This document shows positions 33,318 to 52,091 of a stretch of 64,000 bases of DNA, piece by piece. The position numbers and the translations under genes are program-made. The notes under the pieces were generated by a model. The model saw nothing but the letters and a program-made list of their open reading frames with translations. It had not been told where the DNA came from and searched no databases. The stretch is from an uncultured delta proteobacterium (lineage in GTDB: Bacteria > Desulfobacterota > Binatia > UBA9968). How positions within the stretch are numbered: the stretch's first letter is position 1; every line of letters starts with the position of its first letter. The stretch spans positions 32,001 to 96,000 of the forward strand of contig CAVTUQ010000040.1 in assembly GCA_963737905.1 (NCBI GenBank), given 5' to 3'.

Positions 33318-34661
33318 TTATTCAATTCCCAGGGACTTCATCAGCTTCAAAAAATATTTGGCTTCAAGCCCGAGCAACTTGGCGGCAGCGGACCGATTAC
33401 CGTGGGTTGTGGCAAGCGCCTTCAGGAGTAACTCTTTTCTCGCCGCATTTAATCCCTCGCGATACGGCTGCACTCCCGGAGCAGGCGTCGTCCATCCGGC
33501 GGCGATCCGACCAGGCAAGTCTTCCAACGTAACCGTTGGGCCCGCACCCAGCACCACCGCCCTTTCGATCACGTTCGCCAACTCCCGCACATTGCCGGGC
33601 CAGTCATAGGCCTCAAGTTTTGCCTGCGCTTCTTTGGATATCCCGTTGATATTTCTTCTGATAGCCATGGCATGCTTACGGAGAAAATATTGGCATAGCG
33701 CCGCTATGTCTTCCCTCCGCTCTCTCAGCGGCGGAAGACTAATCGCCACAACGTTAAAGCGGTAATAAAGATCTGCACGGAATAGTCCTTCCTTAACGAA
33801 GCGCTCTAAATTCCGATTGGTGGCGGCTATAATCCGAACATCAACGGAAATCGGCGTAACTCCGCCTACCCGCTCGAATTCTCGCTCTTGAAGAAAGCGC
33901 AATAGCTTCGCTTGGAGTTCCAGAGAGATATCGCCGATCTCGTCGAAAAAGATCGTGCCGCCGTGAGCCAATTCGATCTTGCCGGTCTTACGCCGGTGCG
34001 CGCCGGTAAACGCCCCTTGTTCGTGGCCGAACAGCTCGCTCTCCAGGAGCTCTTTCGACAGACCCACCGAGTTGATAGCGATAAAAGGTCTGTCTTTTCT
34101 TTCACTCCAGTTGTGGATGGAGCGAGCAAAGATCTCTTTGCCGGTGCCGCTTTCGCCGAGGAGTAAGACTGTTGCACTGCTGGCAGCAGATTTCTTGGCC
34201 AAATCAACGGCCTCCTTCATCGCGGCGCTCTCTCCGACCACCAAACGATAGCGGTCTTCGACCTCCTCCGAGAGAATCTCGACGCCGCGTTTGAGCCTTT
34301 GTCGCTCCAGAGCTTTACGCACTACCAGGGCGATATGATCCGGCTCAAAGGGCCTGGTGATGAAATCGTAGGCCCCTTCTTTCATCGCCTCCACGGCCCG
34401 CTCCATCGTTCCGTAGGCGGTGATCATCACCACAGGAGTATCGTTCTCTTTCTTGCGAAGTTCTTTTAAAACTTCCAACCCGCTAAGATCCGGCATCATG
34501 TAATCGAGAATAATGAGATCGGGCCGCGACGACTCGATTTTTTTAAGCGCCTCGCGACCATCGCTCGCGGCAACGACCGAGTAGCCCTCGTGGGTCAACT
34601 CCTGGCTGAGAATATTTCGGTTGGACGGCTCGTCGTCCACGATCAGAATCTTGTCGCTCAT
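33318..34661 (-). CDS. Sigma54-dependent response regulator (NtrC/AtoC family bacterial enhancer-binding protein)
   Basis: Receiver (IVDDE, LDYMMP), AAA+ Walker A GESGTGKE, ESELFGHEQGAFTGA, WPGNVREL and a Fis-type HTH. Confidence 0.95.
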   Translation of the reverse strand: MSDKILIVDDEPSNRNILSQELTHEGYSVVAASDGREALKKIESSRPDLIILDYMMPDLSGLEVLKELRKKENDTPVVMITAYGTMERAVEAMKEGAYDFITRPFEPDHIALVVRKALERQRLKRGVEILSEEVEDRYRLVVGESAAMKEAVDLAKKSAASSATVLLLGESGTGKEIFARSIHNWSERKDRPFIAINSVGLSKELLESELFGHEQGAFTGAHRRKTGKIELAHGGTIFFDEIGDISLELQAKLLRFLQEREFERVGGVTPISVDVRIIAATNRNLERFVKEGLFRADLYYRFNVVAISLPPLRERREDIAALCQYFLRKHAMAIRRNINGISKEAQAKLEAYDWPGNVRELANVIERAVVLGAGPTVTLEDLPGRIAAGWTTPAPGVQPYREGLNAARKELLLKALATTHGNRSAAAKLLGLEAKYFLKLMKSLGIE

Positions 34662-34727
34662 GTCCGCTCTTAGCTCGGCGTTCTTTGCACTTGCAGGTTA
34701 ACGGTTCTGCTCCTCACCCTTTACCCC

Positions 34728-36626
34728 TTACCCCGATTTCAACGGCAGCCTCACCGTGAAAACCGATCCTTTACCCACCTCGCTTTCAACAGCAACCTCT
34801 CCGCCCAGAAGCTCCACGAATCTCTTCACAATGGCCAGTCCCAGACCAGTGCCCCGATATTGCTTCGTGCTCGACGAGTCCCCACGGTGAAACTCCTCGA
34901 AGATCTGATTCAGGTCCTCTTTTCCGATCCCAATACCCGTGTCCGAGACCATTAACTGCAATGATCCGTTTTGTTGCGATGCGGAAATCTTGATTTCACC
35001 TTGCTCAGTATACTTTATTGCATTGTCCAAGAGGTTGAGAATAATTTGTCTTAGCTTTTCTCGATCTGTATTCAAGGGCCCCATGCCTGGATCGATTTCT
35101 CGAACGATGCGAACGCTGCCACCGTTCAAGGTCGGTTCGATGGTTGATAGAGCGCCCTGAATGACTTCGTTTACCCTAACCGGTTCCACATGCATTTCCA
35201 TCTTACCTGCTTCGATCTTGCTAAATTCCAGCAGGCTGTCGATTTGATTGAGCAAACGTTCAGCGTTACGGAGGAGATCTTCGAGATTTTCTCTTTGCAA
35301 TCGCGAGATCTGGCCCTCGGTGGCACGCAGGACCAAATGTGCATAGCCGATGACCGCGCTCATAGGAGTACGGAGTTCATGGTTTACATTTGCGAGAAAT
35401 TGCGACTTGAGTTGGCTCGCCTCTTCCAGTTTCTCGTTGGCGACGGTCAGCGCCTGTGTCCGTTCCGCGACTTTTCGCTCCAGGCTGGTTTGAGCTTCTT
35501 TAAGATGCGCGGTCATCTTGTTGAATTCCTCGGCGAGAGTCTCGATCTCATCCCCGGTCTTGATTTCAAGCCGGGAATTCAGGTCACCACTACTGATACG
35601 TTCCACTCCTTCACGCAAGGCCTGGAGCGGACGCACTACCCGGCGCGCCAGATAGAGGCTCGTCAAGAGTGCCAATCCCAAACCAACCAAAAGCAGGCTG
35701 GAAGTGCGTAAAATTGAAGAGTAGAGAGGCTCACGTGCATCTTCTATCGGTCGTTCAACAAAGACAGCCCAGTCCAGAATCGGGATCAGAGCATTGGAGC
35801 TGAAAACCTTTTGTCCTTGGAGGTTGTAGCTAACGATCGCTCTCGGCTTGAGTCCGCCTTGACTGGGTTGGAAAGCTTCTTTCAATTGATCCAGGACCAC
35901 TTTTTTTTGTTGCAGGACTAATTTGATATTCGGGTGGGCAATGAGATCTCCCGCTCGCGTAACCATGTAGGCATAGCCCGCCTTGCCGACTTTGGTCGCG
36001 GATATGATGTCCCAAATATCTCTGAGGCTGAGTTCAGCTCTAAGGACACCTATGACGTCGCCAGTCGAGTACTCGATGGGGACGGCGATGGTCATGTAAG
36101 GTTCGAACTCTCGGAAGTAGGCCGCGCCGAAATAAGGCTTCCCTTGTTTGGATTGCCGAAAGGCTGCGGATGCGGAGAAATTTCTTCCGGCATCAGACGA
36201 AACAGCGCGGAAGCGCGAGGTCTGCACCCGTATCACACCATTTCCGTCCAGCGCTGCTGCTTCAGTGATCGCAGGCTCTAAAAAAAGAAGTCTCTTCAAT
36301 TCAAACTCGTACGTGGGTGATATGCCATTAGCAGTGATATCTCGACTCTTGGTCGTAGCTTTCATTGAGGTTACAACATCTTGGATGAATCGCTCAATCT
36401 TTAAGGAAGTACCCACCGCGGCATCATGTTGTGCGAGGGCAAGCTGCTCCAGATTTTCCTGATACCGGAAATAGATTTCTACGAGTCCGCTGGAGATGAG
36501 CCCGCCGGCCAACAAGATCACCGAGAAAAAAAAGTAGTCTCGCACCAGCCGTTCACGGCCTGCTCTGCGCGAAAGATGCAGACGTTCTAGTAACTTCCTC
36601 AGTCTCAGTCCGAAATCCACAATCAA
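34728..36626 (-). CDS. Sensor histidine kinase (TM-Cache-TM-HAMP-HisKA-HATPase)
   Basis: Two TMs; Cache motifs (GKPYFG, GYAYMVTRAGDLIAHP); HAMP (TGDEIETLAEEFNKM); H-box NHELRTP; N/G boxes. Confidence 0.95.
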   Translation of the reverse strand: MIVDFGLRLRKLLERLHLSRRAGRERLVRDYFFFSVILLAGGLISSGLVEIYFRYQENLEQLALAQHDAAVGTSLKIERFIQDVVTSMKATTKSRDITANGISPTYEFELKRLLFLEPAITEAAALDGNGVIRVQTSRFRAVSSDAGRNFSASAAFRQSKQGKPYFGAAYFREFEPYMTIAVPIEYSTGDVIGVLRAELSLRDIWDIISATKVGKAGYAYMVTRAGDLIAHPNIKLVLQQKKVVLDQLKEAFQPSQGGLKPRAIVSYNLQGQKVFSSNALIPILDWAVFVERPIEDAREPLYSSILRTSSLLLVGLGLALLTSLYLARRVVRPLQALREGVERISSGDLNSRLEIKTGDEIETLAEEFNKMTAHLKEAQTSLERKVAERTQALTVANEKLEEASQLKSQFLANVNHELRTPMSAVIGYAHLVLRATEGQISRLQRENLEDLLRNAERLLNQIDSLLEFSKIEAGKMEMHVEPVRVNEVIQGALSTIEPTLNGGSVRIVREIDPGMGPLNTDREKLRQIILNLLDNAIKYTEQGEIKISASQQNGSLQLMVSDTGIGIGKEDLNQIFEEFHRGDSSSTKQYRGTGLGLAIVKRFVELLGGEVAVESEVGKGSVFTVRLPLKSG

Positions 36627-36636
36627 GAGTCCTAAC

Positions 36637-37656
36637 TCACTTGATGATCCGGTCTGCCCACGTAAGCATCTTGTCTGGAATCGTCACTCCAATTTCCTTA
36701 GCCGTCTTGAGGTTGATGACCAGCTCAAACTTTTTCGGCAGCTCTATCGGTAGCTCCGCCGGCTTCGCTCCTTTGAGAATCTTGTCCACGACATATGCCG
36801 CCCTCCGGAACTGCTCAATTTCGTTAGCCCCATAAGCCATAAGGCCGCCGACCTCCGCGAAGTCCGCTCGCCAGAAAATTCCGGGAAGACGCCTTTTTAA
36901 GGCCAAGTCGGCAACGTAGCCCAAGTCTTGACCGATGATTGAACTCGGCAGCAAGACAAAGGCTCCGGCTTGCCCTCGCGTCGCCCATGTGAACGCGGCG
37001 CCTACCGAACGTCTCACCAAACCGGATGGGTGCTTTTTAAACAATTTCACCTCCGCCGATTCCAACTCGACTCCTAGTGAACGCGCCGTAACCTCCATAC
37101 CTTTCATTGTTGGTTCCGCTTCAAATCCCTGGCTCCAGAGCACTGCTACCCGGCTGACCCTTGGAACCGTTTCTTTGAGCAGTTCGAGCCATTTTCCACC
37201 TAGCTCCGTTGACATACCGCTTATGCCCGTCACATTTCCTCCCGGTCGCTCACGGCTTGCCACAATCCCAACCGCGACCGGATCACCGAGATATGCCATG
37301 ACGATAGGGATTGTCCTTGTTGCCTGCATGGCGGCACTTAAGGCAGGTGAACGTTGGGGGACGATCACGTTAACGTTGAGCCGGACCAACTCGGCGGCAA
37401 GCCCCGCAAGCCGCCAGTCGTTTCCAAAAGCAAATCGGGGCTCAATAATGATGTTCTGCCCCTCGATGTAGCCAACCTCGCGCAGACCTTGCCGGAACGA
37501 CTGAAAGGCGGGAGACGATGGATCGTCGAGCCCGAGATAACCTATTCGTGGAACTTTCGTAGTCTGCTGAGCTCCGGCGAAGCCTTCAGTTAGAGCCATG
37601 AGCGTGATGATCAGAACGCGCAGAAAGATATTTTTCACGTCGCTTGCCTTCGGCAT
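36637..37656 (-). CDS. ABC_sub_bind (PF04392)-type solute-binding protein, orphan, first gene of the signalling operon
   Basis: Signal peptide; RIGYL, GYIEGQNI, PGGNVTG, GGLMAYG, KILKGAKPAELP and FELVINLKTAK motifs. Confidence 0.9.
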   Translation of the reverse strand: MPKASDVKNIFLRVLIITLMALTEGFAGAQQTTKVPRIGYLGLDDPSSPAFQSFRQGLREVGYIEGQNIIIEPRFAFGNDWRLAGLAAELVRLNVNVIVPQRSPALSAAMQATRTIPIVMAYLGDPVAVGIVASRERPGGNVTGISGMSTELGGKWLELLKETVPRVSRVAVLWSQGFEAEPTMKGMEVTARSLGVELESAEVKLFKKHPSGLVRRSVGAAFTWATRGQAGAFVLLPSSIIGQDLGYVADLALKRRLPGIFWRADFAEVGGLMAYGANEIEQFRRAAYVVDKILKGAKPAELPIELPKKFELVINLKTAKEIGVTIPDKMLTWADRIIK

Positions 37657-37753: not shown

Positions 37754-37768
37754 GCAAAGGAAGTGCCA
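37754..37768 (-). promoter_or_regulatory. Sigma54 -24/-12 promoter for the SBP-HK-RR operon
   Basis: Minus strand reads TGGCAC-TTCCT-TTGC; about 100 bp from the shared palindromic enhancer at 37865-37903. Confidence 0.8.
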
Positions 37769-37864: not shown

Positions 37865-37993
37865 GGTGGCTTTTAAGACACCCAGGGTGGCGAAAAAGCC
37901 ACCTTTTTTAATTGTCTAGCAAGCACTTCTTTATCAGCGCTTCCGTTAACTCAATCACTTAGCCGTCTGTTCTTAGCTGGCACTACGGTTGCT
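37865..37993 (+). promoter_or_regulatory. Sigma54 enhancer-IHF-promoter module, copy 1
   Basis: GGTGGCttttaaGACACC (37865) + GGTGGCgaaaaaGCCACC (37886); AACTCAATCACTTAG (37948); TGGCACtacggTTGCT (37978-93). Confidence 0.85.
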
Positions 37994-38238
37994 GAGTAGT
38001 CGCAAGGATGATTACACACGACTCGTGCTTGAGTAGCGAGAGAGTTACTAAAAACAAATCACAAGGAGGAAGGTCGTCATGGGAAAATTAGTTCTCATGT
38101 CGTTCGGCTGAATCGACTTTTCCGCATTGTCATTTTCCGAATAGGCGTCGCGGTCGTCACTTCGGAAAGGTGCAAATTCTACGTAGCAACCTGCGGGGGA
38201 ATTCACCTCACTTAGATTGAAGATAAAGGGAGGAAAAT

Positions 38239-38700
38239 ATGAAACTAAAAATGAGTTCAGTGGTAATGGTCGCTCTGGCGAGTGGCTTGTTGTTGGTGTC
38301 ATCACATTTCCAGAGAGTCCATGCAGACGATCGGCATGAAAGAGCCTGCTCAAACAAAACTCTGAACGGTTCCTATGGAAGCTACAGGACGGGAACCACC
38401 AGCACGGGCCCACTGGCCGCAGTCGGCATTCTCTTCTTCGACGGCAACGGAACCGTTTTTGGGAGCCAGAACATCAGCAGGAACGGAGTCTTCACTTTTG
38501 ATGTGCCAATCCCCCCCAGTCCGTATGAGGTGGCTGCGGATTGCACTGCCAAGTTCTTAACCGACACCGGTGACGAGGTTGCCCGGGTTCACATCGTAGA
38601 CGGGGGAAATGAGTTTTACGAGCTCAGCGAGACGGCGGGTAATGCGGTCTATGGAGTTGCGAAAAAAATCCACACTGCCGACGACGACCGCGACCGCTGA
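38239..38700 (+). CDS. Secreted hypothetical beta-rich protein
   Basis: Signal peptide; CSNKTLNGSYG...FDGNG...Y.V..DC pattern with two Cys; GGAGG RBS. Confidence 0.8.
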   Translation: MKLKMSSVVMVALASGLLLVSSHFQRVHADDRHERACSNKTLNGSYGSYRTGTTSTGPLAAVGILFFDGNGTVFGSQNISRNGVFTFDVPIPPSPYEVAADCTAKFLTDTGDEVARVHIVDGGNEFYELSETAGNAVYGVAKKIHTADDDRDR

Positions 38701-38918
38701 GTTGGGTCGGAGTCCACAGGGCAAGGAGAGCGAAAGCAAACTGGGAGTCTTTTCCTGATCGTTCTGAATCAATGAGGCCGCGGGGCTTTTCGCCCCGCGG
38801 ACCGTCTGTGAATGAGCTTGGATCGCCGTCTAGCCACCAGGGCTCGCTGGTCATGACGCGACGAAGGGAACAAAAATGGAGCGAGAGTCTTTTTCTTTGA
38901 TCTTTGAATGGAACCGAC

Positions 38919-39260
38919 ATGAGGGTTAGCAAAGCCCATGTTAAGAATTTGTTGGTGGCGCTTCTATGGTTGATGTTGGCTGGCGGCGCTGTTTCAAATT
39001 GTGCCCTCACCGGCATACGGGCCGTAGCGCCATCGAACGCACCGAGTGATTCCCTCTGTAGACAAAAACGGAATCTGCTTGACTTGATCATGCCCGAGAA
39101 CCCAGATGCGGCCACTGTCGAGTGATCTGCGCGAGTTTTATCCACTTACTGAACACGAACAGTGTTAAGTACGTGATCGTCGGCGCCATGGACGCTCGCA
39201 TTCCACGGGCCACCACGTTATACCAGCGATCTCGATATCTTTGTTGCCAGAGACGAAATC
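38919..39260 (+). pseudogene. Chimeric remnant: N-terminus of the M23 lipoprotein gene fused to part of the nucleotidyltransferase pair
   Basis: 38919-39043 is homologous to 48397-48522 and 39075-39256 to 49211-49392. Confidence 0.85.
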
Positions 39261-39389: not shown

Positions 39390-39520
39390 GGTGTCTTTTT
39401 ACACACCCGTGGTGGCGAAATAGCCACCTCCGTTAGCCTTTCAGTAAGCAACGTCCTTCTCAGCTCTTTCATCAACTCAATCACTTAGCGCATCTCTCCT
39501 CCACTGGCACTACTGTTGCT
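39390..39520 (+). promoter_or_regulatory. Sigma54 enhancer-IHF-promoter module, copy 2
   Basis: GGTGTCtttttaCACACC (39390) + GGTGGCgaaataGCCACC (39411); AACTCAATCACTTAG (39474); TGGCACtactgTTGCT (39505-20). Confidence 0.85.
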
Positions 39521-39593: not shown

Positions 39594-40160
39594 ATGAAAC
39601 TAGGGACGATTATAGTAGCGAGCAGAGAACGAGGTCGGACTTTAATATCTCAACTATCTTGGATTTCATGGAGCGAAAAGCACCGTGAAACAAATTCTAA
39701 AGCTAGTCGGAAAACATGGCGCGCAACGTCTATTGTATATTTTCTGTTTTTTATCTTGTGCGCGAGATCATTGGCGGCCGACCCAAAGACAATGGCCTTC
39801 CTCGAAGAGCACACCGTTGCTCCGGGTACGCCACAAACTGTCGGCGCTTTGTACGTGGTGCCGCCTGGACGCAAAGCGTACGTCTCTAACATGGTCTGCG
39901 AGATCCGGTCGTTCAACGGTCCTGGCTACTCGTTCATGTTTCTCGTGGCTTTCGCCAATGCAACAATAGCGGGACCGGCGACAAGTACAGCGGGAATGAA
40001 TCCGCTAGTCTGCGTTAATTCCGACTACATCACCACCAATACATCAAGCCCCGGATTTACGCTTTTACCTGGCAACTACATCTACGCTCTGTACGGCAAT
40101 TTAGGGAATAATATGGATTTTCAAATGCTGTCTGCTTTCATTTTTGAGGATGATCTGTAA
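39594..40160 (+). CDS. Hypothetical exported beta-sandwich-like protein
   Basis: Hydrophobic segment (IVYFLFFILCARSLA) followed by a beta-rich region (LYVVPPGRKAYVSNM); RBS GGAGG. Confidence 0.6.
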   Translation: MKLGTIIVASRERGRTLISQLSWISWSEKHRETNSKASRKTWRATSIVYFLFFILCARSLAADPKTMAFLEEHTVAPGTPQTVGALYVVPPGRKAYVSNMVCEIRSFNGPGYSFMFLVAFANATIAGPATSTAGMNPLVCVNSDYITTNTSSPGFTLLPGNYIYALYGNLGNNMDFQMLSAFIFEDDL

Positions 40161-40821: not shown

Positions 40822-41727
40822 ATGATGAAAACGTTGGCGACAATTCTAATGCCGGTCTACTTGCTCCTAATCACCTGGATTCCGATCGAATCAAGCGCGC
40901 AAGTCTTCGGCGGCGGGACGGAAGAAAAAGATACCGTTGTTCTCAAATGGCTAGGCAATACTGGTTGGGAGATTCAGATCGGGCAAACGATCATTCTGAT
41001 CGATCCGTTCTTAACCCGTGGAGAGGTAAATCTCGGCGCTGAATGGAAAACTGATGAAGCGGCTGTGTTGAAGGCGATCAACCGCGCTGATTATATTTTC
41101 GCCGGCCATAGTCACGCGGATCATATCGCCGACATCCCGTTCATCGCGAAAAAGTTCGGCGCCAAAGTAATCGGATCGCAGACAACGACGAACATCGCGC
41201 TCACCGCTGGCGTGGACAAGTCACAACTCATCACCATAAGCGGCGGCGAAAAACTGGATTTTAAGGAGTTTTCGGTTCAAGTGATCGAAAGCGTCCACGG
41301 GGCGGTGATTAGAGGAGGACGTAGTCGCCGTCCGAAGTTTGAGGAAATCACCAGACCGTGGGCTGGTCCTCTAATGGGCAGCAGTTTCGTAGAGGGAGGA
41401 TGCTACCTTTATTACTTCACCTTCGGAAAGCATCGCGTCTTGCACCAGAGCACTGGTGGCTTCATCGAAGAAAATCTCAGCGGTTTGCGACCCGATATCG
41501 CCCTTCTATACCCGATGAACCGCAACGATTCGGCAGAGATTCTCAAGGCGCTGCAACCGAAAATGGTATTCGTCCATCACTTCGATGAGTGGCGGGCGCC
41601 AATCGCGGAAGGCATGCCGGAACGAAATCGTAAACGGGCTCAACGGTTCGCTAACGACGTTCGAGCGCTCAATCCTGAAATTAAAACCGTCATCCCCGAG
41701 TTCTTCGCGTCCTTTACCTTGGAGTGA
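40822..41727 (+). CDS. Secreted MBL-fold metallo-hydrolase (UlaG-like)
   Basis: Signal peptide; LKWLGNTG, LIDPFL, GHSHADH and HHFD motifs. Confidence 0.85.
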   Translation: MMKTLATILMPVYLLLITWIPIESSAQVFGGGTEEKDTVVLKWLGNTGWEIQIGQTIILIDPFLTRGEVNLGAEWKTDEAAVLKAINRADYIFAGHSHADHIADIPFIAKKFGAKVIGSQTTTNIALTAGVDKSQLITISGGEKLDFKEFSVQVIESVHGAVIRGGRSRRPKFEEITRPWAGPLMGSSFVEGGCYLYYFTFGKHRVLHQSTGGFIEENLSGLRPDIALLYPMNRNDSAEILKALQPKMVFVHHFDEWRAPIAEGMPERNRKRAQRFANDVRALNPEIKTVIPEFFASFTLE

Positions 41728-41843: not shown

Positions 41844-41973
41844 GGTGTCTTTTTACACACCCATGGTGGCGAAAAAGCCACCATGTTGATCGTCCAGCAA
41901 GCACTTCTCTTTATCCGCTCTCTCATCAACTCAACCACTTAGCCCGATGTTCTGCGCTGGCATTGCGGTTGCT
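41844..41973 (+). promoter_or_regulatory. Sigma54 enhancer-IHF-promoter module, copy 3
   Basis: GGTGTCtttttaCACACC (41844) + GGTGGCgaaaaaGCCACC (41865); AACTCAACCACTTAG (41928); TGGCATtgcggTTGCT (41958-73). Confidence 0.85.
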
Positions 41974-42061: not shown

Positions 42062-42311
42062 ATGAAAAGCACAAGAAGCACCGCTCAACATCCATTCGTT
42101 TTGATCCTGGCACTGCTCGGTTTGGCGGGTCTGGCCACGTTCGCGTTGGAGCCAGTTGCGCTCGCACAGGTTAATCCGAGTTGGACCCCTACCGGCAGCC
42201 TGAACATAGCTCGCGTTGGTCACACAGCGACGCTGCTCCCCAATGGCAAGGTACTGGTCACAGGGGGCAGGGGCTATAACTATGAAGCTCTCAACAGCGC
42301 GGAGGTATATG
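42062..42311 (+). pseudogene. Truncated Kelch-repeat secreted protein (paralog of 49973-51952)
   Basis: Signal peptide plus one blade WTPTGSLNIARVGHTATLLPNGKVLVTGG...SAEVY, then cut by IS200 sequence; 5' leader shared with 49973. Confidence 0.85.
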
Positions 42312-42542
42312 GGACGGGCGAAGAACTTTGTGAGACAGCACTTTTGGGCGAGGGGGTACTACGTGTCGACGGTGGGGCGGGACGAGGCCGAGGTGCGTAA
42401 GTATATCCAGGCGCAAGAGAAAGAAGATCGACGGTTGGATCAGCTGAAAATGTTTGAATAGAAGGAAACGCCGGCGTAGCCGGCCAGACCGCTTTGAGCG
42501 GTTCACAAATCAAGCCTCCGGCTCTGCCGGAGGTACATGACT
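42312..42542 (+). mobile_element. tnpA: IS200/IS605 tnpA 3' remnant with right-end hairpins
   Basis: KNFVRQHFWARGYYVSTVGRDEAEVRKYIQAQEKEDRRLDQL (Y1 transposase C-terminus), followed by ACCGCTTTGAGCGGT and CCTCCGGCTCTGCCGGAGG hairpins. Confidence 0.85.
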
Positions 42543-42941: not shown

Positions 42942-43712
42942 GTGCAGCCATTCTCCGCAACAGAAGGAGAAACCATGTTCATAACATCGAACCATCTAGC
43001 CGCATATATTGCCCTTAAGAGCAGGCCAATGACTCAGGAGGGAGTGACCTACCGGAAGAGCGAAATCAGGGTCATCGCCACCAGAACAGCATATGGAACT
43101 TTGATCACGACGCTAGTAACGATCCTGTTCGGGATCGTTTTCGCTTCCACGGCCAGCGCGGGATGCGCGAACGTCCCAGCAAAGCCGGAGCAGCAGCCGT
43201 CCTGGCTCGTACAGACCGCATATCGGCCTGGGACGTTTGTGCTCGCTTCCGATGACGATGGCCCCTCAATTGTAGGGCTGTGGCAATTTACGTTTGTGGC
43301 CAAAGGCAACGGAAACAATACCCCGCCCTTCAACCCGCCCGACGGAGCGATACTCGATGCGGGATACGTCCAGTGGCACAGCGATGGAACGGAACTCATG
43401 AATTCCGGGCGCGATCCGGCCACCAGCAGCTTCTGCATGGGGGTATGGAAAAGCACCGGAAGATTCAAGTACAAGCTGAATCACGTTGCCCTGAGCTGGG
43501 ATGCCACTGGACAGAGTTGCCCTCCGTCTCAACAGCCGGGAGCGACCGGCTGTTTCCAGGGTCCCGCCAATATTCGCGAGGAGATCACCCTGGACCATTC
43601 CGGCGATCACTACACGGGCAGGTTTACGTTAGATCAATACGATCCCACCAGCACGATGCTGCTATTCGAACTGAAGGGTACCATTGCTGCAGACCGCATC
43701 ACGGCGGATTGA
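42942..43712 (+). CDS. Secreted hypothetical beta-barrel-like protein (start uncertain, probably 43029 or later)
   Basis: Signal-like LVTILFGIVFASTASAGC; SIVGLW.F.F...WHSDGTE.MNS...FC.GVW...YKLNH pattern. Confidence 0.75.
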   Translation: MQPFSATEGETMFITSNHLAAYIALKSRPMTQEGVTYRKSEIRVIATRTAYGTLITTLVTILFGIVFASTASAGCANVPAKPEQQPSWLVQTAYRPGTFVLASDDDGPSIVGLWQFTFVAKGNGNNTPPFNPPDGAILDAGYVQWHSDGTELMNSGRDPATSSFCMGVWKSTGRFKYKLNHVALSWDATGQSCPPSQQPGATGCFQGPANIREEITLDHSGDHYTGRFTLDQYDPTSTMLLFELKGTIAADRITAD

Positions 43713-44347: not shown

Positions 44348-44788
44348 TCACGCGATGGCTATTTCGACGTTGAGCGGCTTAAGGTTTTCGGCCTTCGCCG
44401 CTTTAAGTAATCGCCCGTCGGCGGCAGCAAACGTGGTTTCCTCATCGAGAGCGATCTTGAGCGAGAGCGCGGAGGCCAGATGAACGGCATCGAAGCCCTT
44501 CAGTGGGTGGCGTTGGATCAGGTCGCGTGCCAGACCTAGGATATCGTCTCCCAACTCGACTCGAATATAGGCGTGCCAATCGCGGTCAAACTGGCTGCAA
44601 GCGAGGATGTACTCTGCTTTGGACAGATTGCGCTCGCGGAGTTTCCGTGTGAGACCCGCAAAGATTTCCGCATAGGCGATTTTCGCAGTGGCAACGGCTC
44701 TGTCTCGCTGCACCAGGGATCGAACCAGAAGCGATCCCTTTTCGCTAACGAACCGTTTAATCAGAGCGCTGGTATCGAGATAAATCAC
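44348..44788 (-). CDS. vapC: VapC (PIN domain) toxin
   Basis: IYLDTSALIK..E, AYAE, DAVHLASAL and AADGRL PIN motifs. Confidence 0.9.
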   Translation of the reverse strand: MIYLDTSALIKRFVSEKGSLLVRSLVQRDRAVATAKIAYAEIFAGLTRKLRERNLSKAEYILACSQFDRDWHAYIRVELGDDILGLARDLIQRHPLKGFDAVHLASALSLKIALDEETTFAAADGRLLKAAKAENLKPLNVEIAIA

Positions 44789-45066
44789 CTGCGATCTTGC
44801 ACAATGGCCTTCGAGGTGGGTTTACCCGAGACCCTTACTAACCGAACTCGCCTCAGGGGCTTTTGGGTCGGCAACACCAAGAGACCTCGTGCCGCAAGTC
44901 TAGCGAGCCTCGCTTCCAAGCTCACGGCTTTCTCCGCGCTCTTGATCGGCTGAATCAGCGCAATCGGGTTGCCTCTTTCAGTGACGATCACCTCTTCTCC
45001 TTGCTTGGTCCGTCGAAGGTATTGGGTAAGACAATTCTTAAGTTCTTTGACGCCAACCGTGCTCAC
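44785..45066 (-). CDS. Phd/YefM-family antitoxin
   Basis: VGVKELKNCLTQYLRRTKQGEEVIVTERGNPIA; stop overlaps the vapC start. Confidence 0.9.
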   Translation of the reverse strand: MSTVGVKELKNCLTQYLRRTKQGEEVIVTERGNPIALIQPIKSAEKAVSLEARLARLAARGLLVLPTQKPLRRVRLVRVSGKPTSKAIVQDRR

Positions 45067-45263
45067 AAGATGATCCTCCAATGTAGCTATGGTAGCTACT
45101 TTAGGTCTAGAGTACAAACTCTAGCAGGCCGCTGCCTGCAAACAGACTTTTTCATCAACTTTCTGTTGCTGCTTTATTTCAGAACTGGCTACCTTTTTGA
45201 ATATTGCGCCAGTACCATCGGAGTCGCCGCCGAAAAAGTCGCGTGTCCCCTCTCATTTCACAT

Positions 45264-45394
45264 GGTGGCTTTTTACACACCCAGGGTGTTGAAAAAGCCA
45301 CCTTTGTTAAGCTTCCAGTAAGCAACCTCTTTTTCAGCTCTCTCATCAACTCAATCACTTAGCCCGCCTCCTGTCCGGTGGCATTACGGTTGCT
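45264..45394 (+). promoter_or_regulatory. Sigma54 enhancer-IHF-promoter module, copy 4
   Basis: GGTGGCtttttaCACACC (45264) + GGTGTTgaaaaaGCCACC (45285); AACTCAATCACTTAG (45348); TGGCATtacggTTGCT (45379-94). Confidence 0.85.
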
Positions 45395-45472
45395 CACCAG
45401 GACGTGGGTTCGCACAACCCGTAAAGAGACGGGACCCGGATACCATCAGATCCTCTTAAGAGAGTAATGAAC

Positions 45473-46080
45473 ATGTTTGACTTCACTGGCATCATCATCA
45501 AAGGCGGCCGGTCATGGTCCCCCTTTTGGCCTGCTCGATCATCTCCCTCGCCGTGGTCATAGAGCGGATCCTCTTTTGGCGCAAAGCCCGCTCCTGCGGA
45601 CCGGTGGAAGAGCTCCTCCAACTGGTCGAGCGCCGAGAGTTCGCCAAAGCGACCGAACTGGGCCAGAGTGTCGATTTGCCAGCCGCCCGGGTCTTAACCG
45701 CCGGCCTCGAACACCGAAACCCTTCGCTTGCCAAAGCCCTAGAAGTAGCGGCACAGGCGGAGATCCCGGTTCTCAAAAAGCGCCTGACCATTCTCAACAC
45801 CATCATCACTCTGGCACCCCTTCTGGGGTTACTGGGAACCATCACCGGTATGATCAGTTCTTTCGGCATCATGTCGGAGGCGGGCCTCGGCCAGCCCCAC
45901 GCGGTTACCGGCGGCGGCGCCGAGGCCCTGATCGCCACCGCGGCGGGACTCTTGATCGCCATTCTTACCCTCGTCCCATACAACTATTTCTCCAATCGAG
46001 CCGAACGGGAACTGGAAGAGATTGAGTATTACGGCTCGCGCCTGGAGCTGCTATTGGCCGAGCAGGAAGGGAAAAACTAG
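45473..46080 (+). CDS. exbB: MotA/TolQ/ExbB proton channel protein (probable -1 indel near 45510)
   Basis: MFDFTGIIIKGG(P)VMVPLLACS...APLLGLLGTITGMI..F...EALIATAAGL. Confidence 0.85.
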
Positions 46081-46116
46081 CCCAGTGTTCAACAGAACGA
46101 CTTTAAGAAAGTTTAT

Positions 46117-46221
46117 CGCGCCAAGACGCCAAGCACGCAAAGAAAGACATGTACTTATTTTCCGAACCTTGGCACCCCCTTCGACGTCGCTCGGGACATG
46201 CTTTGCGCCTTTGCGCGAGAC
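46117..46221. repeat. 9-mer-periodic palindrome with a nested CCCTTCGAC..GCTCGGGACATG element
   Basis: cgcgccaagacgccaagcacgcaaag ... cttggca[cccttcgacgtcgctcgggacatg]ctttgcgcctttgcgcg. Confidence 0.6.
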
Positions 46222-46272
46222 ATTGTTTTTCCGATCTCTTTCTCAATTCAGAATTTCAAAGGTAAGTGCCTA

Positions 46273-46380
46273 ATGCGGCTTTCGCGCAGAACCATCAAGA
46301 GAGCCCGCATCGAGATCATTCCGATGATTGATACGATCTTTTTCCTGCTGGTCTTTTTCATGATCTCGACCCTTGGCCGA
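46273..46380 (+). pseudogene. exbD: Truncated ExbD/TolR
   Basis: RARIEIIPMIDTIFFLLVFFMISTL, then loses similarity. Confidence 0.8.
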
Positions 46381-46657: not shown

Positions 46658-46930
46658 CTAGAGCGCTACTTTAAGTCGGGGTTGCACTAGACGGGACTTT
46701 GGAGGAGGAGCCAATTTCTTGACCCGTACGTGGACCACCGGCTGATTCTTTTCCCTGTGGCGGCGAGCCAGGGCCAGATTCTTGCGACACAGAGACGGAT
46801 CATCCTCCGGCAGAAGCACCACTAGGGCATTGTTCGGAATTTTATCCGCCACCTCGGGATGCTCGACGAGGTACTTATTAAATTCCGTGTTTAGTAGGAT
46901 ATTTTTATAGGCGAAACTCTTTTTATTCAC
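46658..46930 (-). CDS. Small putative antitoxin-like protein (DUF5647-like)
   Basis: NILLNTEFNKYLVEHPEVADKIPNNALVVLLPEDDP; paralog of 32588-32866. Confidence 0.65.
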   Translation of the reverse strand: MNKKSFAYKNILLNTEFNKYLVEHPEVADKIPNNALVVLLPEDDPSLCRKNLALARRHREKNQPVVHVRVKKLAPPPKSRLVQPRLKVAL

Positions 46931-47241
46931 TTCGTTTCCTCCCGAAAATATCTTTCTCGGTAGAGCTCCCAATTGGCTTTCACATCTTCCTGTGCGTAAG
47001 AGAAAGCGTCGCTAAAATTTGGAAAGTGCAGCAACCTCTTTTCCTTTGTCCCGTCCGGGTTCATGACATCCGTGTGAGGCTGTCCATGCGCTGTGTCATA
47101 ACGGACTATAGCCATCCACTGATCCTTCAGAAGCGTTTCATACTGAACAACAAATGCCGTGATTTTGCCTCGATCCTTTCTGAACCGAACCCGGATACGA
47201 TCCTGGCCGGTGATCATTTGGACATAGGCTTTCTCAACCAC
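46927..47241 (-). CDS. Small putative toxin-like protein (DUF7718/TumE-like)
   Basis: FVVQYET...W..IVRYDTAHGQPHTD; paralog of 32863-33170. Confidence 0.65.
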   Translation of the reverse strand: MVEKAYVQMITGQDRIRVRFRKDRGKITAFVVQYETLLKDQWMAIVRYDTAHGQPHTDVMNPDGTKEKRLLHFPNFSDAFSYAQEDVKANWELYRERYFREETK

Positions 47242-47335: not shown

Positions 47336-47515
47336 TCAGAGTAAGCGAGAACGCCCCAAAGAATTCTTTGCCACACCATGACGATTGGCGACATCATTCT
47401 GCACAATTAGGGCCGGGCGCGTCTTCCGAATTTCTGCACCTATCGTGGGATCAAAATTGACGAGATAAACCTCACCCCTCCGAGGTCGTACTAACGGCGT
47501 TGGGCTTTGGGCCAT
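47336..47515 (-). pseudogene. mazF: Truncated MazF/PemK toxin (59 aa)
   Basis: Manual translation MAQSPTPLVRPRRGEVYLVNFDPTIGAEIRKTRPALIVQND..N, then premature end. Confidence 0.85.
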
Positions 47516-47739
47516 ACTTCTTCATCGATTAGGAACCATTCTTCCGCAATTGCTCGGTCGCGCTCAAATCTGCGAACGGATCCTTCCTTGATCTTTTTTT
47601 TGAGACTCTTCCTCGCCGCCCCTCGAAAATATTGTTTCAGAGCTTCGTCGACGAGCCGGCTTCGGTCGCCTTTACCCGCCACTCGTTCCATGAGGCGCAC
47701 AGTTGACTCTGGCAAGGTGATATTAATGCGCTTGTACAT
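47491..47739 (-). CDS. Ribbon-helix-helix (CopG/EndoAI-like) antitoxin
   Basis: KRINITLPE...SRLVDEALKQY; overlaps the mazF start. Confidence 0.8.
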   Translation of the reverse strand: MYKRINITLPESTVRLMERVAGKGDRSRLVDEALKQYFRGAARKSLKKKIKEGSVRRFERDRAIAEEWFLIDEEVWPKAQRR

Positions 47740-48047: not shown

Positions 48048-48175
48048 GGTGGCTTTTAAGACACCCACGGTGGCGAAAAAACCACCTTTTTTAATTGTCT
48101 AGCAAGCACTTCTCTATAGCTCTTCCATCAACTCAATCACTTAGCCGTCTCTTCTCCGCTGGCATTACCGTTGCT
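48048..48175 (+). promoter_or_regulatory. Sigma54 enhancer-IHF-promoter module, copy 5
   Basis: GGTGGCttttaaGACACC (48048) + GGTGGCgaaaaaACCACC (48069); AACTCAATCACTTAG (48130); TGGCATtaccgTTGCT (48160-75); downstream leader shared with copy 1. Confidence 0.85.
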
Positions 48176-48396: not shown

Positions 48397-49017
48397 ATGA
48401 GGGTTAGCAAAGTATACACTGAGAACTTTCTGGCATCGCTTCTATGGCTGATGATGGCTGGCTGCGCGGTTTCAAGTTGTGCTCTGACCGGCATACGAGC
48501 CGTAGGTCCAGCGAACGCACCGCCGACTCTTTCCGGTCGGTGGCAGCCAGCAGACGGCGCACTGCCACATCAAGGGATAGCCATAGACGGTCGTGGTTAT
48601 TTTGATTATGAAATTTTAGCTCCTTCAGACGGGATCGTTGTGCGCATTAGGGGTGATCATGTCACAATTCGTCATGGCCTAGGTTCGAACAAACAGGACA
48701 TATACACGGACCATTTCCATGTGGACGGCACATCGCTCACGGAGGGGGATCAGGTAAAAAGAGGACAGAGCATAGGCTTGATTGGTAGGGGCACGTACAC
48801 CCTCGTTCCCCATTATCATTACGTGGTCAGGAAAAGAGAAGGTCGCGGAAAGTTTATCGTGCTAGACCCCATCGATTACTGGTTTGGAATTGACGAGTAC
48901 AAGGAAAAGCTGGGAAAAAAACTCGTTACTGGACCATTTGTAATCCCTTGCTTCGATCCAAATGTGAATTACCCAAAAGAGCCGATAAGATTTACATATC
49001 CAGTCAAATGCAAGTGA
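48397..49017 (+). CDS. M23-family peptidase-like lipoprotein
   Basis: Lipobox-like MAGC; HQGIAI (HxxxD position is Ala), ILAPSDG.V, GDQVKRGQSIG.IG and PHYHY (HxH). Confidence 0.8.
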   Translation: MRVSKVYTENFLASLLWLMMAGCAVSSCALTGIRAVGPANAPPTLSGRWQPADGALPHQGIAIDGRGYFDYEILAPSDGIVVRIRGDHVTIRHGLGSNKQDIYTDHFHVDGTSLTEGDQVKRGQSIGLIGRGTYTLVPHYHYVVRKREGRGKFIVLDPIDYWFGIDEYKEKLGKKLVTGPFVIPCFDPNVNYPKEPIRFTYPVKCK

Positions 49018-49111: not shown

Positions 49112-49303
49112 ATGGAAAAGGTAGTTCATAAATTTCGCTCCTTTGAAGATGCCGATAACGCCGACTACGAATATTACCGCGCCCTCTCCGGAAACGAAAA
49201 ACTGCAACTGCTGCTTGACTTGATCATGCCCGAGAACCCCGATGCGGCCACTGTCGCGCGATCTGCGCGAGTTCATCCACTTACTGAACACGAACCGTGT
49301 TAA
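49112..49303 (+). CDS. Small protein upstream of the nucleotidyltransferase (putative TA partner)
   Basis: MEKVVHKFRSFEDADNADYEYYRALSGNEKLQLL; overlaps the downstream gene. Confidence 0.6.
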   Translation: MEKVVHKFRSFEDADNADYEYYRALSGNEKLQLLLDLIMPENPDAATVARSARVHPLTEHEPC

Positions 49304-49706
49304 GTACGTGATCGTCGGCGCCTGGGCGCTCGCGTTCCACGGGCGGCCACGTTATACCGGCGATCTCGATATCTTTGTTGCCCGAGACGATGAGAACGCC
49401 GACAAACTGATGGCGGTCATCGAAGCTTTCGGATTTAAGGATGCCGGTATCAGGCGCGAAGATTTCCTGCAGGTCGATCACGTCATTCAGCTTGGGCGTG
49501 AGCCCAACCGTATCGATATCCTTACCGGAATCAGCGGAGTCTCATTCGACGAAGCATGGGCCAACCGAGAGTCAGGGAAAGTCGCCGATATTGCCGTATT
49601 TGTCATCAGCCGAGACCTTCTGATCAAGAATAAACGGGCGGCTAACCGAGACAAAGATCAGGGAGATATCAAGCTATTGGAAAGAACTCGGCCGCCACGT
49701 CATTAG
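49242..49706 (+). CDS. Nucleotidyltransferase-fold protein (DUF6036/AbiEii-like)
   Basis: YVIVGAWALAFHGRPRYTGDLDI...RIDIL...LIKNKRAANRDKDQGD. Confidence 0.8.
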   Translation: MRPLSRDLREFIHLLNTNRVKYVIVGAWALAFHGRPRYTGDLDIFVARDDENADKLMAVIEAFGFKDAGIRREDFLQVDHVIQLGREPNRIDILTGISGVSFDEAWANRESGKVADIAVFVISRDLLIKNKRAANRDKDQGDIKLLERTRPPRH

Positions 49707-49751
49707 CGAGTCTAACGTCCGCCTCGTTTTGATCCGACCGGCGACATAAGG

Positions 49752-49882
49752 TGTGTCTTTTTACACACCTTATGGTGTCTAAAAAAACACCTTCTTAATC
49801 GTCCAGCCCGCATCGTTTTTAGCAGCTCTCTCATTAACTCAATCACTTAGCTCATCTGTTCTTCCCTGGCACTGCGGTTGCT
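49752..49882 (+). promoter_or_regulatory. Sigma54 enhancer-IHF-promoter module, copy 6
   Basis: TGTGTCtttttaCACACC (49752) + GGTGTCtaaaaaAACACC (49774); AACTCAATCACTTAG (49836); TGGCACtgcggTTGCT (49867-82). Confidence 0.85.
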
Positions 49883-49972
49883 CAGTTGCCGCTTAGAAAT
49901 CATTACGCCGCCAGATTCTATGGTGTCGAAATCACGCTTCGGCATCATCGACAGCGGGAAGGGGTCATTCCT

Positions 49973-51952
49973 ATGAAACAGACAAGAAATATCGCTCGAC
50001 GTTGGTTCGCTTCGATCCTAGTGCTGCTCATGGCCACATTAACGCTGGAGCCAGTTGCACTCGCAGGGGCGGATCCGAGCTGGATCCCTACCGGCAGCCT
50101 CAACATAACCCGCTCGGATCACACAGCGACACTGCTAGCCAACGGGAAAGTACTGGTCGTAGGAGGCTACAACTATGAAGATGGTGGTGATCTCAACAGC
50201 GCAGAGTTGTACGACCCATCCACGGGCACATGGAGCGTCACTGGCAACCTCAATACACCTCGGTCTGGTCAGACCGCGACACTACTGCCAAACGGTAAGG
50301 TACTGGTCGTAGGAGGCTACAACTATGAAGGTGGTGGTGATCTCGACAGCGCAGAGTTGTACGACCCATCCACGGGCACATGGAGCGTCACCGGTAGCCT
50401 CAGCACGGGTCGCCGCGGTCACACAGCGACGCTGTTGCCCAACGGTAAGGTACTGGTCGTTGGGGGCTCCAACTATAACAACTATCCACCAGCGGGTTCT
50501 CTCAACAGTTCAGAGCTCTATGACCCGGCTACAGGAACGTGGGCGGTCGCCAACGGCCTCAACGTAGCTCGCTCAAGTCACACAGCAACGCTGCTGTCCA
50601 ACGGAAAAGTTCTGATCGCGGGAGGATTCACGGGATTCTCCACCAGCGGTCTTTGCCCATGCATAGATTTTGTTACGAACAGTGCGGAGCTCTATGATCC
50701 GATCACGGGGACATGGAGCTCCACGGCCAACCTCAACGCGGAGCGTGGTCTTCACTCAGCGACGTTGCTCCAGAACGGCAAGGTCCTGGTCGCGGGAGGA
50801 ACCAATGGCACCCTTATCGATATTGACGAACTTGTCCCTCTCACTAGCGCAGAATTATACGATCCAGCCACAGGAACATGGACCCTTACCGGCAGTCTCA
50901 ATACAGCCCGCAATTCTCATACAGCAACGCTGCTTCCCAATGGCAAGGTCTTGGCCGCAGCCGGATATTATACGGGTACGGCGGAGTTATACGACCCAGC
51001 CACGGAAACGTGGAGTTTCACCGCCAGTCTCAACACACCTCGCTCAGGTCACACAGCGACGCGACTCCAAAACGGCCAGGTGCTGATTGCGGGAGGCGAT
51101 AATGGCTCCATTCCTAGCAGCGCGGAGCTATATAATTCCCATCGGCCCGCACCAGTGGATTTCGATGGCGACGGCAGAAGTGACATCGCAGTGTACCGCG
51201 ATGGTGCTTGGTTCATCGTGCGATCATCGGACGGAGGAGTGACAGCGACAGATTGGGGAGGTCTGCCACAGGACAAACCGGTACCAGCGGACTATGATGG
51301 AGATGGGAAAGTGGACCTAGCGGTCTACCGAGATGGGACGTGGTTTATTCTTCGATCTTCGGATGGAGTGCAACTATCACTGGCTTGGGGTGGTTTGCCG
51401 CAGGACATACCGCTACCTGCAGATTATGACGGCGACGGGAGGGCAGATCTAGCGGTGTATCGTGATGGAATGTGGTTCATCTTACGTTCTTCAGACGGAG
51501 GCCAGACCACTGTGGGATGGGGCGGAGCGTTAGCGGATGTGCCGGTACCGGCAGACTATGATGGCGACGGGAAAGCAGATATCGCGGTGTACCGTAGTGG
51601 GACGTGGTTTATCATCCGATCATCGGACGGTGCGGTGCAGGTGTCAGCGGGTTGGGGCGGAGCGGCTCAGGACATACCGCTACCGGCAGACTACGACGGT
51701 GATGGAAAGGCAGATATGGCGATTTACCACGACGGGTTGTGGTTCATCTTACGTTCTTCCGATAGCGGCCAGATAGCCGTGGGCTGGGGAGGACTGCCAC
51801 AGGATGTACCGGTGCCGGCAGACTTTGACGGTGACGGCAAGGCAGACGTGGCGCTCTACCGTAATGGAATGTGGTTCATCATTCGATCCTCGGATGGAGG
51901 AGTGACAGCGACAGGATGGGGAGGGGCAGCGGAGGATATTCCGCTGAACTGA
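49973..51952 (+). CDS. Secreted Kelch-repeat (7 blades) plus FG-GAP/VCBS-repeat (6 DxDGDG units) protein
   Basis: Signal peptide; R..HTATLL.NGKVL..GG...AELYDP x7; P..ADYDGDG.AD.AVYR.G.WFI.RSSDG x6. Confidence 0.9.
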   Translation: MKQTRNIARRWFASILVLLMATLTLEPVALAGADPSWIPTGSLNITRSDHTATLLANGKVLVVGGYNYEDGGDLNSAELYDPSTGTWSVTGNLNTPRSGQTATLLPNGKVLVVGGYNYEGGGDLDSAELYDPSTGTWSVTGSLSTGRRGHTATLLPNGKVLVVGGSNYNNYPPAGSLNSSELYDPATGTWAVANGLNVARSSHTATLLSNGKVLIAGGFTGFSTSGLCPCIDFVTNSAELYDPITGTWSSTANLNAERGLHSATLLQNGKVLVAGGTNGTLIDIDELVPLTSAELYDPATGTWTLTGSLNTARNSHTATLLPNGKVLAAAGYYTGTAELYDPATETWSFTASLNTPRSGHTATRLQNGQVLIAGGDNGSIPSSAELYNSHRPAPVDFDGDGRSDIAVYRDGAWFIVRSSDGGVTATDWGGLPQDKPVPADYDGDGKVDLAVYRDGTWFILRSSDGVQLSLAWGGLPQDIPLPADYDGDGRADLAVYRDGMWFILRSSDGGQTTVGWGGALADVPVPADYDGDGKADIAVYRSGTWFIIRSSDGAVQVSAGWGGAAQDIPLPADYDGDGKADMAIYHDGLWFILRSSDSGQIAVGWGGLPQDVPVPADFDGDGKADVALYRNGMWFIIRSSDGGVTATGWGGAAEDIPLN

Positions 51953-52040
51953 ACCACGGAAAGGATTTGGATAGACAACGCCTTACCAAAAAACGGAGAG
52001 TAGAAACGCGCTGGGAGTCTTCTTCTTGAGGCAGCTTAAC

Positions 52041-52091
52041 GATCAGGGAGATATCAAGCTATTGGAGAGAACTCGGCCCCCGCGTCGTTAG
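52041..52091 (+). repeat. 51-bp direct repeat of the nucleotidyltransferase 3' end (49656-49706)
   Basis: gatcagggagatatcaagctattgga(a/g)agaactcggcc...cgtc(a/g)ttag in both places. Confidence 0.85.

Follow-up and report, generated by a model that had tools for sequence, protein, structure and literature searches.

Why do six copies of one whole promoter stand in a row, all in the same orientation and each in front of a different gene? The question is raised by a locus in a 64,000-nucleotide stretch of contig CAVTUQ010000040.1 (assembly GCA_963737905.1, positions 32,001 to 96,000; hereafter the window) from an uncultured delta proteobacterium of the Binatia. A preliminary description had reported six promoter modules starting at 37865, 39390, 41844, 45264, 48048 and 49752, beside a gene that could encode their activator. 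All six starts and the plus strand hold. As argued below, the locus is best read as a form of promoter-bounded cassette shuffling, in which the modules are likely to act as joints for the exchange of units.

Each module contains two 18-bp imperfect palindromes with starts 21–22 bp apart, followed by AACTCAA(T/C)CACTTAG (at 37948, 39474, 41928, 45348, 48130 and 49836; hereafter the integration host factor (IHF)-like box), which sits 29–30 nt 5' of TGGCA. TGGCAY-N5-TTGCT lies 113, 115, 114, 115, 112 and 115 bp from the first palindrome in modules 1–6, respectively, and the geometry first described (paired palindromes, box, and −24/−12 site 112–115 bp away) holds in all six. All six modules carry the −24/−12 box TGGCAC-N5-TTGC, and their paired palindromes lie about 100–140 bp before the start, as expected of a sigma54 enhancer; the proposed enhancer-promoter anatomy stands on both points. 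Pairwise identity of the six is 72–87%. The IHF-like box is one position off WATCAR-N4-TTR, the Escherichia coli consensus given in PMC3897727. Sigma70-like sites showed no excess (11 versus 11.2 in shuffles). An Rfam scan of 31000–54000 at E ≤ 1 returned no match, so the module belongs to no known RNA family, and the module does not fold into one full-length hairpin. The second palindrome is terminator-like in modules 1, 5 and 6; region-wide there are 18 terminator-like sites versus 17.3 in shuffles, and T residues behind the second palindrome are slightly more numerous in internal copies (3.9 versus 3.4 of 8; p 0.02). We regard the modules as almost certainly sigma54 promoters. Their setting in the window is as follows.

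33318..34661, minus strand: NtrC-type response regulator, a bacterial enhancer-binding protein (bEBP) with receiver, AAA+ domain with GAFTGA, and Fis helix-turn-helix (HTH) containing LGLEAKY (Pfam, translation)
34728..36626, minus strand: membrane histidine kinase with dCache_1, HAMP, HisKA and HATPase_c (Pfam)
36637..37656, minus strand: substrate-binding protein (SBP) PF04392, first gene of the sensor operon (Pfam)
37754..37768, minus strand: leftward −24/−12 sigma54 site of the SBP–kinase–regulator operon, palindromes common with module 1
37865..37993, plus strand: module 1 (palindromes 37865–37882 and 37886–37903, IHF-like box 37948, −24/−12 37978–37993)
38239..38700, plus strand: cargo 1, 153-aa signal-peptide protein, no Pfam family
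38787..39256, plus strand: leftover pieces of an M23 leader/5' end and of a nucleotidyltransferase gene, with homology to unit 5
39390..39520, plus strand: module 2
39594..40160, plus strand: cargo 2, 188-aa protein with a hydrophobic signal-like segment, no family
40822..41727, plus strand: exported metallo-beta-lactamase-fold protein, trailing gene of unit 2 (Pfam)
41844..41973, plus strand: module 3
42062..42400, plus strand: cargo 3, Kelch gene truncated after one repeat
42270..42461, plus strand: IS200 (Y1) transposase 3' remnant over the cargo 3 break (PF01797, E 1.8e-7)
42942..43712, plus strand: 256-aa open reading frame (ORF) with a signal-like segment, no family
44348..45117, minus strand: Phd/YefM antitoxin and PIN toxin pair (Pfam)
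45264..45394, plus strand: module 4
45468..46375, plus strand: cargo 4, frameshifted exbB and truncated exbD
46658..47241, minus strand: DUF7718/DUF5647 small gene pair (Pfam), inferred from layout to be toxin-antitoxin-like
47491..47739, minus strand: small ribbon-helix-helix-like ORF, weak match (RHH_5, E 0.07)
48048..48175, plus strand: module 5, 87% identical to module 1, common leader
48397..49017, plus strand: cargo 5, M23 peptidase with lipoprotein-type signal
49242..49706, plus strand: minimal nucleotidyltransferase that trails in unit 5, with its 3' end found again at 52038–52091
49752..49882, plus strand: module 6
49973..51952, plus strand: cargo 6, exported Kelch/FG-GAP repeat protein (Pfam)

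Extra genes lie between the modules (metallo-beta-lactamase-fold protein, 256-aa ORF, toxin-antitoxin-like pairs, nucleotidyltransferase), so a module heads a unit and not a single gene. The earlier picture of one gene per module is correct in that each module heads a cargo gene; it has to be amended in that units hold trailing genes and cargos 3 and 4 are broken. Units 1 and 5, and likewise units 3 and 6, are homologous segments.

The module is confined to this locus in the source genome. A profile built from the six copies, searched against 6.7 Mb in 46 contigs, gave six full-length matches (E ≤ 7e-36), all in the array, and the best further match on these contigs had E = 1.1; the proposed scan for a local or dispersed element thus gave a clear answer. 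The genome holds 68 strict −24/−12 sites versus 13 for the reversed pattern, and only the six modules have an IHF-like box 20–45 nt from a strict site, the expression for the box having been fitted to the module. Among 205 loose −24/−12 sites, the six modules form the largest family with homologous upstream DNA; nine other such families have 2–3 members each. Both rpoN and recA are present. Separately, near-identical pairs of other sigma54 promoters (93–98%) were seen on contigs C5/C7, C14/C31 and C39 of the source genome (G000); they could be duplicated segments, or redundancy in the assembly (contamination 6.7%).

Relatives were sought by DNA search of 90 family genomes, since a strict palindrome pattern, which matched 2 of the 90, was too strict. 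In this search 14 genomes matched at E ≤ 0.01, and for ten the match reached E ≤ 3e-7; weak matches in G073, G101 and G049 covered short parts only and were excluded from counts. In a sample of the class, with two candidates scored per genome, matches came from 6 of 63 genomes of the same family and from 0 of 337 in other families, and the seven palindrome-pattern records included three labelled Candidatus Binatia and two labelled uncultured delta proteobacterium. The genomes with the module are the genomes with an orthologue of the activator (60–81% identity; frameshift-split in G047 and G075), and the copies adjoin it. Fifteen genomes have the orthologue; contigs of G055, G066 and G068 stop before the promoter region, which leaves 12 informative. 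In the comparison proposed earlier, 11 of these 12 hold one to six module copies at the orthologous locus (the copy in G103 is diverged) in front of differing cargo. The slot has a conserved order: TAXI-type binding protein, activator–kinase–SBP, array, then PALP enzyme and FAD oxidase.

A metagenome pattern scan yielded at least 127 stretches; 124 loci were analysed, of which 111 had a profile match and 13 were dropped. Altogether 167 profile matches (the genome and metagenome matches listed) comprised 21 partial or box-less and 146 full ones, and removal of 21 exact duplicates left 125 unique copies. Among the matches listed, 22 records are at least 8 kb long; 16 contain the activator or kinase, and 19 contain these or the distal flanking genes. 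Of the remaining three, one is cut off by the contig end next to a fragment of an SBP gene, and the other two represent a single locus. Modules are co-oriented in 18 of 18 multi-copy records. A scan of viral contigs gave a single pattern match, which is not a module.

Several of these loci have features of their own. In G047 (contig C40; L059:4781-6097), an integrase-core (rve) insertion of ~1.3 kb splits the first module between palindromes and IHF-like box, and the 5' half of the G047 activator is 93% identical to that of the window despite a different genus. L100 and L102, labelled Acidobacteria (Blastocatellia, Pyrinomonadaceae), have modules beside sensor genes, with the full triad in L102; they share 99% identity with metagenome contigs L110 and L172, which would fit misbinning or cross-phylum transfer. 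At the end of the G059 array region (contig C22; L064:10811-18166) stand a PIN gene, a second C-terminal activator fragment and the genes cas1/cas6.

Spacing is largely fixed across copies: the first palindrome mostly stands 112–115 nt, and the IHF-like box 29–30 nt, from TGGCA. TGGCA-N6-TTGC is kept in 26 of 26 full-length genome copies found without the pattern, a partly circular count because full length requires a match there. The AG(C/T)AAGCA box, put forward as a further conserved element, is present in modules 1–5 and absent from module 6; across the 125 copies it is among the least conserved parts, with 0.51 background identity among relatives, no higher than the adjacent spacer. Its likeness within the window is, to judge from these identities, a mark of descent within the source genome and not a separate site.

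The array adjoins the SBP–kinase–activator operon, which is transcribed away from the modules. Receiver, sigma54-interaction and Fis-HTH domains confirmed that 33318–34661 encodes an NtrC-type bEBP with GAFTGA. The leftward site at 37754–37768, absent from the preliminary description, lies 209 nt from the −24/−12 of module 1 and ~113 nt from its palindrome pair; both sites share this pair, which by sequence makes module 1 the right arm of a bidirectional sigma54 promoter. Consistently, a leftward sigma54 site was found in 22 of 34 copies facing a sensor-operon gene versus 7 of 83 other copies. Module 1 is the likely ancestor of the other modules. Activator orthologues with the HTH motif LGLE[AST][KR]Y adjoin GTGGC-N6-GACAC/GCCAC palindromes, whereas paralogues (63–68% identity) with LGLH[KR]TH adjoin single sigma54 promoters with GTAGC/GTATC/GTAGA-type palindromes at equal distance. 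This co-variation, together with adjacency and the divergent sigma54 arm, indicates that the neighbouring gene is very probably the cognate activator, as had been suggested. Against TIGR02915 (PrsR), the activator scored 421.9 bits, below the cut-off of 502.6.

The paralogues have surroundings of their own. In L090, L086, L094, L091 and L084, a single sigma54 promoter with GTAGC-type palindromes comes after a paralogous activator (63–65% identical), and behind it genes for PF04392 binding proteins stand in tandem arrays (nine genes in L090 and six in L086); a kinase follows the array in L084, L086 and L094, and we read these loci as a second, input-side array system. In G075 (contig C5), G072 (contig C24), L110 and L100, an NMT1-type binding protein, SCO1/SenC and a short kinase replace or join the PF04392 and dCache sensor. 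Alternative sensor sets in front of the same activator suggest that the input side is modular too.

Re-pairing of flanks is common at the module. Among the matches listed, 108 copies have both flanks and represent 88 distinct upstream/downstream pairings; the TIGR03032 family stands behind 19 different upstream families, 11 cargo families follow the operon-facing flank family that is most frequent, and several pairings recur in independent records. Local alignments of pairs with a common upstream flank usually stop at the −12 box, and those of pairs with common cargo usually begin at the first palindrome. Since alignments would end at the module with any conserved element, switches were sought inside it. 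From the PIN/Phd flank as far as the IHF-like box, module 4 matches the metagenome copy L126; from there on the two diverge, the cargo behind the switch being ExbB in the window and TIGR03032 in L126. Chimeric pairs switch near −47 (L110/L229), near −10 (L117/L193) and near −108 (L192/L208) relative to TGGCA; further switches lie at −49, −36 and −14, another near −94, and one pair switches at ~+88, outside the module.

The earlier proposal that the whole promoter was copied as a unit is supported by these comparisons; an account in which the promoter copied itself locally each time is not, because the nearest relative lies in the same record for only 2 of the 32 copies of multi-copy records. 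Arrays thus seem to have been mostly assembled from units of mixed origin. Contigs from 4 of 24 listed soil, freshwater and bog runs are ~99% identical to cargo 2 with matches starting at 39456 or 39469, inside module 2, and carry other sequence before that start. One contig joins 37964 (module 1) to 41948 (module 3), with a likeness of 88% that may point to a related organism. Because the switch points are spread along the module, homologous recombination is favoured as the route, and we consider it likely that the modules serve as exchange joints; the cluster of switches between the IHF-like box and −24 leaves room for a site-specific route.

Cargo is diverse. In 118 copies (among the matches listed), the DNA behind the module could be sorted into 47 flank families; DNA flank families were used for counts because protein-level clustering had wrongly merged Kelch with cargo 1 and three short ORFs with TIGR03032. 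With the protein clusters, which are indicative, the nearest-neighbour module has the same cargo in 43 of 88 cases versus 14.8 in shuffles. The commonest cargo, TIGR03032/DUF4915 (27 of 100), has no signal peptide and is cytoplasmic. Others are PAP2/haloperoxidase-like, Kelch/FG-GAP, DUF3108-like, S9/DLH hydrolase, beta-helix, S8, M23, He_PIG, TSP_3, cupin and serine hydrolase proteins. A signal-like N-terminus was found in at least 53 of 100 cargos, a lower bound since the crude rule overlooked several evident signals and took the wrong ORF for copy 4. The ExbB protein belongs to the inner membrane. The cargo, first described as different and exported, does differ from copy to copy and is predicted to be mostly, not wholly, exported. 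In a protein atlas, cargo 1 matched unnamed clusters at 0.95–0.97 and cargo 2 stayed below 0.9; PADLOC matched none of nine small array proteins, and no PEP-CTERM tail occurred among the cargo and array proteins within 34 scanned (a subset of all cargo).

Where longer TIGR03032 forms were scanned, they proved to be fusions with TPR and a weakly matching GT9 domain (L110, L138). TIGR03032 is followed by a choice-of-anchor Q repeat protein in L136 and L138, and a sulfate adenylyltransferase/adenosine phosphosulfate kinase precedes it in L139 and L170 and lies nearby in L115. This neighbourhood is possibly a modification operon for secreted proteins. The exbB of cargo 4 is 87% identical to a resident exbB on contig C5, with homology from the ribosome-binding site on, as if a gene already resident in the genome had been captured downstream of the promoter.

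Further observations concern the ends and leaders of cargo genes. A 10-codon ORF with a strong ribosome-binding site (38079–38111), between module 1 and cargo 1, may encode a leader peptide or be what is left of a gene that was replaced. Between exbB and exbD (46086–46260) lies a palindromic repeat that resembles a REP (repetitive extragenic palindrome) or MITE (miniature inverted-repeat transposable element) and has many genomic matches (14 BLAST rows in one bin). The lipoprotein-type signal of the M23 peptidase (window 48397–48480) heads alpha/beta hydrolases in three genomes (L021:11401-12378, L071:15225-16100, L023:8280-9200), and the Kelch signal stands on an unrelated protein in L100 (7117–7959), pointing to signal reuse.

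Identity statistics inside the module speak for exchange in part. With families weighted equally, identity above background rose in common-cargo pairs, 5' to 3' (+0.037, +0.124 and +0.107), a contrast beyond 300 of 300 shuffles and in favour of exchange. Other observations weigh against exchange at activator-linked modules. In common-upstream pairs the values were +0.056, +0.110 and +0.036 and the contrast was not significant (p 0.17); shuffle statistics of both kinds overstate, as the sequences are related and hence not independent. Stretches of exact identity between window copies run to 15–32 nt, mostly at the IHF-like box or a palindrome and mostly under 22 nt, which is short for RecA, and exchange may be rare. 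Some short metagenome pairings could be assembly chimeras. In G070, the slot holds the activator operon and, in place of a module, insertion sequence (IS) and serine-recombinase genes, and one locus (L142/L147) has no activator in its known DNA. Two of six window cargos (Kelch of 3, exbB/exbD of 4) are broken, so the array also decays. The two HU/IHF-family genes of the source genome (87% complete) scored 78.5 and 113.4, both under the IHF-alpha/IHF-beta cut-off of 120, and the proposed role of IHF rests on the sequence and place of the box.

Could the locus be an ordinary local sigma54 regulon, shaped by segment duplication and by IS-driven or illegitimate cargo replacement, with the module no joint and merely a conserved part? 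The homologous units 1/5 and 3/6, IS remnants in several arrays, exbB capture at the ribosome-binding site 3' of the module, and the switch at ~+88 all fit this account. It is at odds with the scarcity of nearest relatives in the same record, with the mosaic identity inside the module in flank-sharing pairs, and with the 99%-identical contigs that swap partner within module 2, and we regard it as unlikely, although the most serious alternative. Reshuffling could also be largely an artefact of assemblers that join strains at similar modules, given that metagenome contigs are mostly short, that many end at or near a module and that joints were read at 88% likeness. Differing cargo sets, however, occur in long genome contigs from several genera, exact identity is mostly under 22 nt and so less than usual assembly word lengths, and several pairings were seen repeatedly in independent records; an artefact on this scale is very improbable.

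A different account makes the module an attachment site for a site-specific recombinase acting in trans, perhaps IHF-aided at the near-invariant box, with a secondary promoter role. The cluster of switches at −49, −47, −36, −14 and −10 would suit it, as would the genome's other tyrosine recombinases and its integron integrase on another contig. The latter (G000, contig C7, 226498–227442) scores over the TIGR02249 cut-off, has short inverted repeats nearby and is unrelated to the array, with no similarity between the two regions. Further switches near −108 and −94 do not fit a single site, the module forms no single long hairpin, and recombinases were neither conserved in the arrays scanned nor found among the window ORFs scanned; we consider this account improbable. 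Integrons, like the array, hold tandem co-oriented variable units, toxin-antitoxin genes included, that are exchanged across lineages, and their attC sites have a motif pair, RYYYAAC...GTTRRRY, and a full hairpin. The integron-like logic first proposed is not borne out: the attC motif pair is present in 1 and absent in 124 of 125 copies, with no full-length hairpin and no adjacent IntI, the promoter is 5' of each unit, and the switch points are spread. Integron identity was rejected on these grounds. Hardly credible, finally, is a MITE/REP-type selfish repeat with incidental promoter-like motifs. The palindromic 5' part, the location of copies in variable DNA and a half copy on another contig in G047 recall such elements; the genome-wide scan of the source genome, which found no copies elsewhere, already contradicts dispersal, the copies are always co-oriented with cargo, the −24/−12 geometry is exact, and the palindromes co-vary with the activator HTH.

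The preliminary description knew of no system with this layout; close analogues are in print. Promoter-early stem-loop (PeSL) elements are mobile regulatory cassettes of T4-type phages (PMC2839356; PMC4122927). As in the array, unrelated accessory genes of a hypervariable region stand behind repeated promoters; it is at these promoter elements that insertions, deletions and replacements are located; and homologous recombination without a dedicated integrase was proposed, each gene bringing its own promoter (PMC2839356). PeSLs, however, are strong phage early promoters of sigma70 type that include terminator stem-loops and for which mini-circles have been demonstrated (PMC2839356), whereas the array is built from an enhancer-dependent sigma54 promoter on a bacterial chromosome and would be silent without the adjacent two-component activator. 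According to the accessible text of that 2010 paper, there was then no evidence of such plasticity in cellular organisms (PMC2839356). By this analogy, the locus works like PeSL cassettes but is not one.

The regulatory side recalls PrsK/PrsR, the sigma54 regulon of PEP-CTERM genes, in which one NtrC-like activator and its kinase serve many unrelated exported-protein genes of soil and sediment bacteria, each behind an activator motif and a −24/−12 site (PMC1569441). There, only motifs are common, the spacer is 62.8 ± 10.6 nt and the accessible text describes no single array (PMC1569441). In the window, by contrast, whole promoters are homologous with fixed spacing in one array beside the regulator, units are swapped, the activator falls under the TIGR02915 cut-off, and PEP-CTERM tails are absent from the proteins scanned. 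The divergent sigma54 promoters of orp1/orp2 in Desulfovibrio vulgaris, with IHF and the adjacent EBP DVU2106, resemble the array in palindromic EBP sites, an IHF site near −43, −24/−12 boxes and divergent operons by the activator gene; there, the operons are two and fixed, and the activator gene, driven by sigma70, represses its own expression (PMC3897727). Here, in contrast, one sigma54 arm serves the activator operon itself, and the opposite arm occurs in as many as six copies. Putative mobile promoters likewise place homologous promoter regions before non-homologous genes, but are mostly pairs, with no tie to a neighbouring activator or ordered array in the accessible text (PMC3575422). 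Our literature search, which covered mainly open papers without supplements, found no description of this locus, no sigma54 promoter array acting as an exchange site and no paper on TIGR03032.

On balance we favour a signal-gated, integrase-free cassette locus whose units are exchanged by homologous recombination. A periplasmic ligand, sensed by the SBP and the dCache kinase, would lead to phosphorylation of the adjacent activator, as sigma54 biochemistry and the HTH–palindrome co-variation suggest. The activator would then bind the GTGGC-N6-GCCAC/GACAC pairs, so that all units fire together with its own operon (positive feedback). Copies of the right arm (palindrome pair, IHF-like box, −24/−12) head every further unit, and the comparisons show that units of promoter, cargo and any trailing genes are gained, lost and re-paired between strains and genera, with sequence switches inside the module; the route would be ordinary homologous recombination between direct repeats of 70–90% identity. 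An incoming unit would come pre-wired to the activator. New cargo would enter more rarely, captured just downstream of the promoter, as exbB may have been. The output would be mainly cell-surface or secreted proteins plus a TIGR03032–TPR–glycosyltransferase/3'-phosphoadenosine-5'-phosphosulfate operon; a surface or matrix programme is our guess. More tentatively, at somewhat less than an even chance, the locus could be a chromosomal, integrase-free gene-capture platform whose sigma54 enhancer-promoter is both switch and exchange site. Its pool of units would circulate among the genera of one soil family, land only in this slot and be expressed solely when one autoregulated activator is on, with inputs and outputs both plugging onto a constant activator–enhancer pair.

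If so, a regulon could take in genes without evolving new binding sites, the whole enhancer-promoter being the unit of exchange. Shuffling of the PeSL type is known from phages, and this locus would add a case from cells, under the control of a signal, for which 125 natural variants of the promoter are available and switch points have been mapped. It would also provide an activator–enhancer code, HTH motif against palindrome, for paralogous sigma54 systems of an abundant uncultured soil lineage, and may place TIGR03032, a family not yet characterised, under a common regulator with secreted repeat proteins.

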